This document shows positions 15,701 to 18,700 of a DNA stretch of 64,000 bases, piece by piece; position 1 is the stretch's first letter, and every line of letters begins with the position of its first letter. This stretch comes from Octopus sinensis. Taxonomy: Eukaryota. A model generated the notes under the pieces. The model did not search any database. It was not told the DNA's origin and saw only the letters and a list, made by a program, of their open reading frames with translations. Where the stretch lies: positions 77,934,001-77,998,000 of the forward strand of contig NC_042999.1 in assembly GCF_006345805.1 (NCBI RefSeq), in the 5' to 3' direction. Position numbers and translations under genes: made by a program.

Positions 15701-18700
15701 ATTATTATTATTATTGATCCACAAAGGTCCAGGCAGGAGAGAGTTTGTTGACGCTGGGGTAGACACACAATATGTGAAGCTATTCAATTCTCCTCCGGGT
15801 TAAGCACAAAAAGCTTGAACATCTTACCTCTTTTATGCTACACCTTTTAGGCCAGAATTTTAATAAAATTTTCACAACCTGAAAGAAAAAGAAATTGATT
15901 TTTCTTTTTAGCAAATGAAATCATTGAAAACCTTACCTCCTTTTGACTACATTGCTTAGGCCAGAATTTTAATAGTCCTTTCACAGCCTGAAAAAGAATA
16001 GCAAATTGAACTGCTTATTAGATTCGGTTAAAAGCTACTATTTCTGCAATTATAATTGATGTATAAATGTTCAATTAAAAGGCATTTGTTTTTAAATACA
16101 CACACATACACAGAAATCAATTTGAATTTTAGACAATATTTGCAATATCAATACTATTCTGTTTTAGACTTGAACATCAAACATTTGATCCAGTTTTTCT
16201 TTTCATCTACACCATCACTATGGCCATCTGACACCACTTCCAAACTGCTGCAGTTTTAAATGATGATGAAACTAGTATATTGATCTCATTTCACAGTCAC
16301 AATCTTATAGAGGCTGATGTTTCAAGTTTGGCTTATTAACAAGTTATAAAAATATTGTCAAACTAATTAATTTAGGATTTCTTAAAATCTGCCATGTTAT
16401 TTATCTTCAAAGGGAGATGTTTAAAGGATATTATTTAATATCTCTGTTTTGTTGATTATCTCTGATATTCAACTGGCCTATTCTGTGCTATGGTTCTTAA
16501 CCTAAATCAAAGATAACTACTAATAACATATCTTGGTTACCTTCTCTTATCAAAAGGAAGCTCTACACTGCTACTCTATCTGCTAGAACTATTAGTGAAA
16601 TCTCCCTCAAATTACACCCTATCACCTTAAAAAAAAAAGCAAGATTGTATAGTTTTAAACACACTATGCCAGGAAAAAAATATGGTATGGTCATGATTGG
16701 AACATTTTTGATCCTAGTTTCTGCTTGAGCATGACTGGTTTGGGGCTAAACCAAAATAACATGATAAAACACAATTTTAATAAGGAATAATTAATGGAAG
16801 TTAACACCTAAAACTAAATTAAAAAGCAAAAAAAAACAAAACAAAAGTACATGAATTCATGACAAAGACTATTTGTAGCTTACATAGAGGAAACAAACCA
16901 ATGAGAGAATTTCTAAACAGTCACTTGATCATCTAAATACAGTAGCTAAATCTTCTAGGGAAATATCTCCATTTTCTTGAAAATAGGAACTAAAAGCTTT
17001 TAAATTATAAATCTTGGACTAGGATTTCACAATACAGACACAGCTGTCATGAACATAACAACAAATGGATAATTATTTAATCTGTTGTCACTGTGCTGAA
17101 AATGTATTGAAGCAGAGGTGAACAGCAGCTATTGAATAACAACCATCTATAAGTATCTTACATCACAAAAATAAACACACTATAATAAATTTAGTTTACT
17201 TCTGTGCTGAAATTATATTTTATGAACATGAATTACTAATTGCATTTGACAAAATGAACAGAGCCATAATAGTGCAAAGAAATAATTTTATCTAATTTAT
17301 TCCTATAGACTAGAAACTGCATCTGATATTTCCCCATTGACCTAAATAATCTTCAGCATTCATATCTTTCTAGATATGAAAAATATTAAAAATCCAATGC
17401 TGAAAAACTTCAGTATTATACTCAACAAAAAACGAAAGAATAGGGTTGTTCATAGTGAAATCCAGACAGCATACATTTCTATTTATATAATTGTTGGATA
17501 ATAACATTCAAACTGAATATATTTAGAGGCAATTGACCATAGCATAACAAGGAAGTCACGAATCCTCAAACTACCAGAAATAGTTTTTTTTTTTTTCTAA
17601 AGACTTATTTAAAAGAAGTCATTTTTGTTAAGAGCTTTCATAAAATTTAGAGTGCAAACTGAAATTCAGAACCTATCTTTTCTTGTTAAAACAACTTAAC
17701 AGATATGTAGTTTAAAATAACTGCTAGAAGAAAGATACAATTTCTGATTATAACAACTCATAAAATAGAACATATTAAAAAATGGTGACTACTTTAAAAG
17801 TCTATTAATTGAAAATATTTCTAAAACTTTGCAAATTTTTTTCAATACAGTAAAAAAAAAACCATCAAATGTTATGTTAAAACTAGCTCTCTGACAAAAG
17901 ACAAATTCATAAGTAAACTTAAACAGTAAGGTCACTGTGACATTAATTATAAGACCACATCAAGACACTGCTGAATAAAAAATATAGAAAAAGACTGTCA
18001 ACAAGAAACACAGGTAACATTTTATAGCCATAGGAATCAGATTATCTTATCAACCCAAATTAAAATTTTTAGAGAAAATAAATGATATTCTTAGCTCCTC
18101 ATGTTAAGAATGAATGTAGCAGTAAGAGGTTGCTCTGCTGGTGAGACTTGGTAATTTTAAACTGAAGGTATACTGAACTAACACATAGAACATTATACAG
18201 ACAAGTCATCTTAGTTAGTTGTAGCCATTATTAGCTTTTGAACAAGACAATACCACTATACTAGACTGTTTAATTGAGAAAAGCAAGAGCATGATAGATA
18301 GGATGGAGGGCAAAGATAAAGCAAACAAGAACACCAGTAGACTGTGAGTATGAATGTATTCTTCAAATAAAAGATGGCTATTTTGAAGAATCTGAAATAG
18401 ATCATTTTGAGAAGTTGAACACATATCTTCCAATGTATTATTTCATAGATTAAAAATATATCTTCCTAATCAGTTCAAAACTCTTGAAATATTTATTTTC
18501 AACAAGAGTTTAACAACTTGTAAGAAAAAGTATGGAAGAAGAAATTTAATGTCTAAAAATGCATGCAACTTTGAAAGATAAAGTGGATGCATTTGTAAAT
18601 ATTTCCATGCACACATTATCTTGATTCTTGTCACAAAAATGACAAATAAAACACATTGACTTAAATTTTATCTAACCAAAATATTTAAACCAGTCTATCA

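Follow-up and report, generated by a model that had tools for sequence, protein, structure and literature searches.

Alpha-tropomyosin 2/3 and alpha-actinin are steric-interference pairs, in which neighboring alternative exons lie too close together to be joined. More generally, homologous mutually exclusive exons (Hatje 2017, PMC5740500; Martinez Gomez 2021, PMC8373072) are adjacent, equal in length and phase, confined to one structural element, and bounded by ends that are embedded in helices, and the octopus exon pair described here shares each of these properties (the last by structure prediction). The threshold given for steric exclusion is a donor-to-branch-point distance below about 50 nt (PMC5740500, PMC7969005). 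Exons 4a/4b of OGDH (PMC7969005) also fall below this threshold, but there the intron is longer and its branch points are distant, whereas the octopus intron measures 58 nt in total. The C. elegans pairs of egl-15, let-2, bet-2, gly-5, and gly-6 likewise have a very short intervening intron, with the cut-off there set at 40 nt, and too-short intervening introns were reported for 5 of 10 C. elegans clusters whose exon lengths are divisible by three (PMC4165533).

Vertebrates possess five genes for the B56 subunits of the phosphatase PP2A. Splice variation in these subunits has been described at the termini (PMC2257934). PPP2R5 is absent from the main texts and supplements of PMC5740500 and PMC8373072 in the form available, which may be incomplete or list the genes under other identifiers, and this absence suggests, weakly, that no such pair exists in the human B56 genes. 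No description of the present exon pair, or of any swap within the B56 core, was found in the open literature, to which the search was confined (subscription journals lay outside it). The exon pair is of a known splicing-switch type, and in a B56 gene it seems to be undescribed.

In the current study, we examine this pair, exons 9A and 9B, in a 64,000-nt stretch of the Octopus sinensis genome (the window) and compare it with annotated proteins, RNA reads, homologs, and published mechanisms. On balance, we favor a pair that is mutually exclusive, with A as the main form, B as a likely minor and selected one, and a 58-nt intron that is likely too short for both to be joined.

The Host Gene and Its Duplicated Exon

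A query with the downstream exon matched P0003, a 462-aa Octopus B56 protein that is encoded by 12 coding exons across about 256 kb of contig C3 of the assembly (G000:C3), with the pair corresponding to exon 9. The gene belongs to the alpha/beta/epsilon subfamily of PP2A B56 by both sequence and fold: PF01603 is present on the P0003 cluster, P0003 scores 766 bits against human B56 epsilon and alpha and at most 676 against delta and gamma, and the best fold matches, human PPP2R5A/B/E and PP2A holoenzymes (8uwb, 6nts), align structurally at 78–80% identity. Two well-conserved B56 genes were found in the 2.72-Gb assembly, namely this gene and a gamma/delta-type paralog on C20, which has the same exon boundaries here and a single exon copy in the stretch retrieved.

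Both copies of exon 9 are 51 nt long, in phase 0, and encoded on the minus strand at an offset of 109 nt, and the introns that flank the pair measure 4.9 kb and 7.1 kb (Table 1). Their acceptors are pyrimidine-rich and end in TTTCAG, and both donors read GAG/GTAAG. The copies differ at 13 of 51 nt, comprising four single synonymous changes (in Leu, Lys, Ser, and Lys codons) and nine changes spread over four codons (1 + 3 + 3 + 2). Every detail of the pair that an earlier sequence-only reading of the window had given, including the two encoded peptides, proved correct when checked. The copies are homologous, lie side by side, match in length and phase, and have canonical splice sites.

Table 1. 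Features of the B56 gene in the window, listed in the direction of transcription.
Feature	Position in window	Strand	Remarks
Exon 5	62467..62597	-	
Exon 6	49124..49183	-	
Exon 7	23218..23326	-	Exon 7-8 joint (18/10/14 reads) is the yardstick of transcript flow
Exon 8, upstream neighbor, 54 nt, phase 0/0	20888..20941	-	Not duplicated here; differs within oyster isoform pairs
Exon 9A, main copy	15937..15987	-	B56 residues 297-313; joint with 20888 in 14/11/14 reads and in X13 contig, depth 600; in P0003
GT-AG intron separating 9A from 9B, 58 nt	15879..15936	-	Early stop if retained
Top branch-point-like motif for B, CTAAA	15907..15913	-	Predicted branch A at 15908; motif scan only
Exon 9B, alternative copy	15828..15878	-	A297V, G300I, Q308R, Q311I relative to A; in P0121
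Exon 10, downstream neighbor, 120 nt, phase 0/0	8626..8745	-	Outside the stretch compared with RNA reads
Exon 11	6478..6707	-	

Exon 9 is the sole duplicated exon of the 256-kb gene. When the exon peptides were scanned without gaps against 262 kb spanning the whole gene, B scored 68 relative to a self-score of 94 and was bounded by the correct AG and GT, and the next match to exon 9 scored 36; the second-best match of each of the other 11 exons scored at most 30 and came without both splice sites. A search of the window for 51-nt near-repeats offset by 51–599 nt gave two matches, this pair and a 38-of-51-nt match at about 63080 (offset 219) in intron sequence. Across the assembly, the pair region is single-copy, with one match for the stretch and one for the B coding pattern. 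Three sequence-index rows from two studies, one of which may itself have supplied the assembly, contain every sampled word of positions 15700–16100.

Several further B56-related sequences were encountered. The annotated A-form P0122 (430 aa) ends right after exon 11 (window position 6478), where the following intron reads straight into a stop, and so is without the last exon and its long helix at the C-terminus. On another chromosome, L005:2580-2738 (G000:C12:16288579-16288740) repeats B56 residues 1-53 at 100% identity, crosses the exon 1/2 boundary, and is likely a retrocopied fragment or a chimeric gene. B56-like genes with 27–43% identity and seemingly very short introns lie on unplaced scaffolds (L025–L027 on G000:C8694, C8901, and C9495, and also C9004), and myosin matches were noted on C688, C1302, C2502, C7512, and C9002; these scaffolds are likely co-sequenced parasite DNA (a dicyemid would be our guess) rather than octopus paralogs.

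Annotated Isoforms and RNA Evidence

The NCBI annotation pipeline derives its alternative isoforms from aligned transcripts, and its B models are therefore indirect evidence of B splicing. Among the five members of the P0003 cluster, four carry A and one, P0121, carries B, and none has both exons or neither. The sole differences between P0121 (462 aa) and P0003 (462 aa) are A297V, G300I, Q308R, and Q311I. An identical B-form sequence is deposited as XP_036356998.1, XP_052822586.1, and CAI9719576.1, which we take to come from O. sinensis, O. bimaculoides, and O. vulgaris, respectively. Because these annotations stand on three contigs, an assembly artefact is unlikely, and one of them probably belongs to the window's own assembly. 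The sequence-only reading was not aware of a description of the pair in molluscs; we too found no paper that describes it, although both forms already exist as NCBI gene models.

Two targeted searches recovered no B-type protein among the best 120 of 364 and the best 120 of 1864 matches, in collections whose 90% clustering hides isoforms, and none was present among six assembled proteins that share about 95% identity with the octopus sequence. The high scorers P0242–P0244 and P0001–P0002 were rejected as models with duplicated stretches other than the exon 9 pair. Metagenome contigs scanned for the A-type coding pattern yielded no matches. P0229, an animal-type B56 fragment from a 264-nt contig, is filed as a Staphylococcus aureus protein, a label that likely reflects contamination.

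Positions 15720–23400 of the window were compared with RNA from three raw runs of one study on a related octopus (about 6% of each run) and with one contig set, X13. The joint between exons 7 and 8 was covered by 18, 10, and 14 reads (42 in total) and that between exon 8 and A by 14, 11, and 14 (39 in total), so that A dominates and takes most of the flow (39 vs 42). The sequence-only reading had proposed an either/or switch, to be checked by counting junction reads. That count gave 39 reads for 20888>15987, and neither 20888>15878, the joint into B, nor 15937>15878, the joint from A to B, was among the 15 joints listed of 80 in this region. The proposal draws support from the annotated models, which are A-only (P0003) or B-only (P0121), and from exon ends that lie inside predicted helices, but splicing of B was not seen directly among the joints listed. 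Since the dominant joint runs from exon 8 to A, the B form can be no more than minor or restricted in those samples.

Read depth was also considered. A seeming excess over B in X13 was rejected, since A alone accounts for it: 49 nt x 599.6/257 gives 114.3, the observed value, and the depth is that of A together with 9 nt of intron that match by chance. Over positions 15720–15976, an excess of about 376 bases in X22 and about 264 bases in X23, with none in X21, could represent B or intron. Elsewhere in the same stretch, an interspersed repeat at approximately 19967–20321, likely a SINE-type element, reaches an RNA depth of more than 1,000-fold, with reads that derive mostly from other copies.

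Divergence of, and Likely Selection on, Exon B

The two copies differ at a proportion of 0.69 of synonymous sites (6.3 of 9.2) and 0.16 of nonsynonymous sites (6.7 of 41.8), both site counts being small. With synonymous sites near saturation, B still has its reading frame, its acceptor and donor, and 13 of its 17 residues. In simulations of random decay (200,000 runs each), at most four residue changes and no stop were obtained in 8.8%, 1.9%, and 0.3% of runs with 9, 11, and 13 changes, respectively. All four of B's changes fall within the seven of 17 sites at which the octopus gamma/delta paralog differs from A (chance 0.015, calculated post hoc). Though small, these numbers favor selection over drift for B, and we regard it as quite probable that B is a real, selected alternative exon.

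A recent duplication, which would have left similar intron flanks, was considered and rejected: the flanks of A and B score 16 and 16, within what unrelated exons give (-6 to 18 and 2 to 25). As this is no more similarity than unrelated exons show, the duplication is old. The segment was located in 281 of 318 retrieved proteins, a set biased to alpha/beta/epsilon types. Among these 281 homologs, positions 300, 308, and 311 hold Gly in 275, Thr in 267, and Gln in 272, and Ile300, Arg308, and Ile311 of B occur in no other sequence, a uniqueness that also matches the look of mild degeneration. Val297, in turn, is kept by B and by 271 of the 281 homologs, and Ala297 is common to A and six proteins about 95% identical to P0003, which are likely from other coleoids. 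Either the duplication is older than the change to Ala297, or B reverted by one transition.

Predicted Consequences for the Protein

A structure model of P0121, built from a 30-sequence alignment and with a pLDDT of 86–94 over the exon segment, predicts a helix at residues 291-303, a loop at 304-310, and a second helix at 311-324. In this model, exon 9 covers the latter half of the first helix, the FWPKxCS loop, and one turn at the start of the second. As both exon ends lie mid-helix, skipping both copies would be expected to break the solenoid.

Human PPP2R5A/B/E share the CSQKE-type segment and the residues equivalent to Lys303 and Phe304, which are kept in both octopus copies and align to Lys316 and Phe317 of human B56alpha. 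The latter two residues line the DT-061 site in 6NTS (bioRxiv 10.1101/2025.11.26.690749), a pocket between the A, C, and B56alpha subunits (PMC9707111), although the action of this compound is disputed (PMC9289710). The catalytic tail wedges at the three-subunit junction (PMC11087950). The groove that binds LxxIxE motifs is formed by residues corresponding to gamma1 173-243 (PMC4930772) and lies upstream of, and outside, exon 9. Contacts of residues 300, 308, and 311 were not found in the available text of PMC10970375, PMC9707111, PMC11087950, PMC9398451, or PMC6406801. Because the junction residues Lys303 and Phe304 are kept and the LxxIxE groove is outside the exon, B (G300I, Q308R, Q311I) is predicted to alter holoenzyme packing or stability near the junction rather than motif recognition. 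A measurable effect of B on assembly is possible, though we lean slightly against it.

How Exclusivity Might Arise

Two of the established routes to mutual exclusion do not apply to this pair. As A and B are both 51 nt, and hence divisible by three, frameshift-induced decay cannot enforce exclusivity, which places the pair outside the NMD-enforced class. Judged by the U12 donor consensus, the GTAAG donors of both exons likewise place it outside the class of U2/U12 incompatibility. With regard to the docking-site/selector class (Dscam type), in which conserved pairings between intronic sites compete, local RNA folding is unremarkable (z = -0.05 over 301 nt, a measure of local structure only). 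The geometry, in contrast, fits the steric class, with the branch point itself being predicted: every adenosine that is 15 nt or more from B's acceptor lies within 42 nt of A's donor, and the best motif is at 29 nt. With candidate branch points no more than 42 nt from A's donor, steric exclusion is likely. Once A's donor is used, B's branch point would lie at most 42 nt downstream, below the spacing of about 50 nt proposed for joint binding of U1 and U2. A transcript that takes A would then be unable to add B, and B would be used only when A is skipped. Provided that B is real and selected, we consider enforcement of this kind likely.

The sequence-only reading had attributed exclusivity to the protein, arguing that including both exons or neither would disrupt the repeat. 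The mid-helix exon ends do explain why skipping both would be harmful, but a protein-level argument cannot prevent co-inclusion. Co-inclusion of A and B stays in frame, and the resulting direct repeat could loop out 17 residues and extend the loop. The 58-nt intron, which did not feature in that argument, is a likelier enforcer than protein disruption.

Alternative Explanations

The exon might instead be a leaky and functionally unimportant duplicate, included at a low level through its good splice sites, annotated by pipelines, and tolerated as A makes nearly all of the protein. This is unlikely in our view, although the observation that A covers nearly all flow among the joints listed would be expected from it, as would the radical and unique residues that B carries at near-invariant sites. 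Since neither the A protein nor the B protein varies between the annotated octopus assemblies, the identity of B, read apart from the DNA, is of limited information and agrees with leakiness as well. A leaky copy accords poorly with a frame, splice sites, and 13 of 17 residues that are intact while synonymous sites approach saturation, with flanks that mark the copy as old, and with the restriction of B's changes to sites that vary between paralogs.

Even if B is selected, the exons could be truly mutually exclusive because splicing regulators, or RNA pairing over long distances, keep them apart, with a 58-nt intron that is spliceable and of incidental size. Human introns shorter than 66 nt do get spliced, including one of 56 nt (PMC8363638), and the steric class fits only 9% of human clusters (PMC5740500). 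We nevertheless rate this explanation as distinctly unlikely, considering that the published steric limit applies whichever adenosine serves, that no signal of local structure was detected, and that the two short introns measured in the gamma/delta paralog are 96 and 113 nt long. Least probable, and by our estimate very improbable, is that A and B are tandem cassettes whose co-inclusion, or the retention of whose short intron, gives transcripts that are extended or destined for decay and thereby tunes the level of B56. Co-inclusion in frame and an early stop upon retention are compatible with such tuning, as is the excess depth in X22 and X23, and the bet-2 pair of nematodes retains its intervening intron (PMC4165533); both exons together, however, occur in none of the five octopus cluster members, and the exon ends lie mid-helix. 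We continue to favor steric exclusion between a main exon A and a minor exon B.

Other Likely Swaps Within the B56 Core

A comparison of isoforms at the protein level, covering 200 retrieved proteins of at least 300 aa and 509 close pairs, revealed three other groups that differ solely by substitutions in one exon-sized block of the core. In oysters, the pairs P0138/P0141 and P0144/P0052 differ only by V283S, A291S, and P292C in exon 8 (the homolog of window positions 20888-20941), identically in two species, Crassostrea gigas and, presumably, Ostrea edulis. The Lingula anatina proteins P0314 and P0315 differ only at residues 118-141, in the acidic-loop exon, and those of Branchiostoma floridae, P0300 and P0338, only at residues 379-392, in a C-terminal block of the core. 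Judging from these proteins, the oyster, Lingula, and amphioxus pairs look like independent swap exons at different places. Short insertions, which may reflect microexons or the use of alternative splice sites, were also noted among models P0326/P0328/P0333, P0134, P0068, and P0127. The exon 8/9 junction holds 9 additional residues in ticks, 13 in a bivalve, and 4 in Littorina, and an octopus-like protein has 10 inserted at residue 147.

A broader proposal is that invertebrates with a single alpha/beta/epsilon gene acquired swap exons in the B56 core several times and independently (octopus exon 9, oyster exon 8, the acidic loop of Lingula, and the C-terminal block of amphioxus), with splicing supplying the holoenzyme variety that vertebrates gained by gene duplication. 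Octopus B would then be old, possibly predating the octopus-squid split (as Val297 would suggest), restricted to certain tissues, and able to remodel the three-subunit surface. We regard this proposal as conceivable but doubtful.

Significance

With a textbook splicing mechanism, both isoforms already in databases, and a B form that looks minor, the pair does not constitute a new class of system. The B56 core is, nonetheless, among the most conserved parts of PP2A. If regulated, a swap adjoining the junction of the three subunits would amount to a natural experiment showing which core residues tune holoenzyme assembly, and the parallel invertebrate cases would add B56 to the examples of convergent exon duplication.
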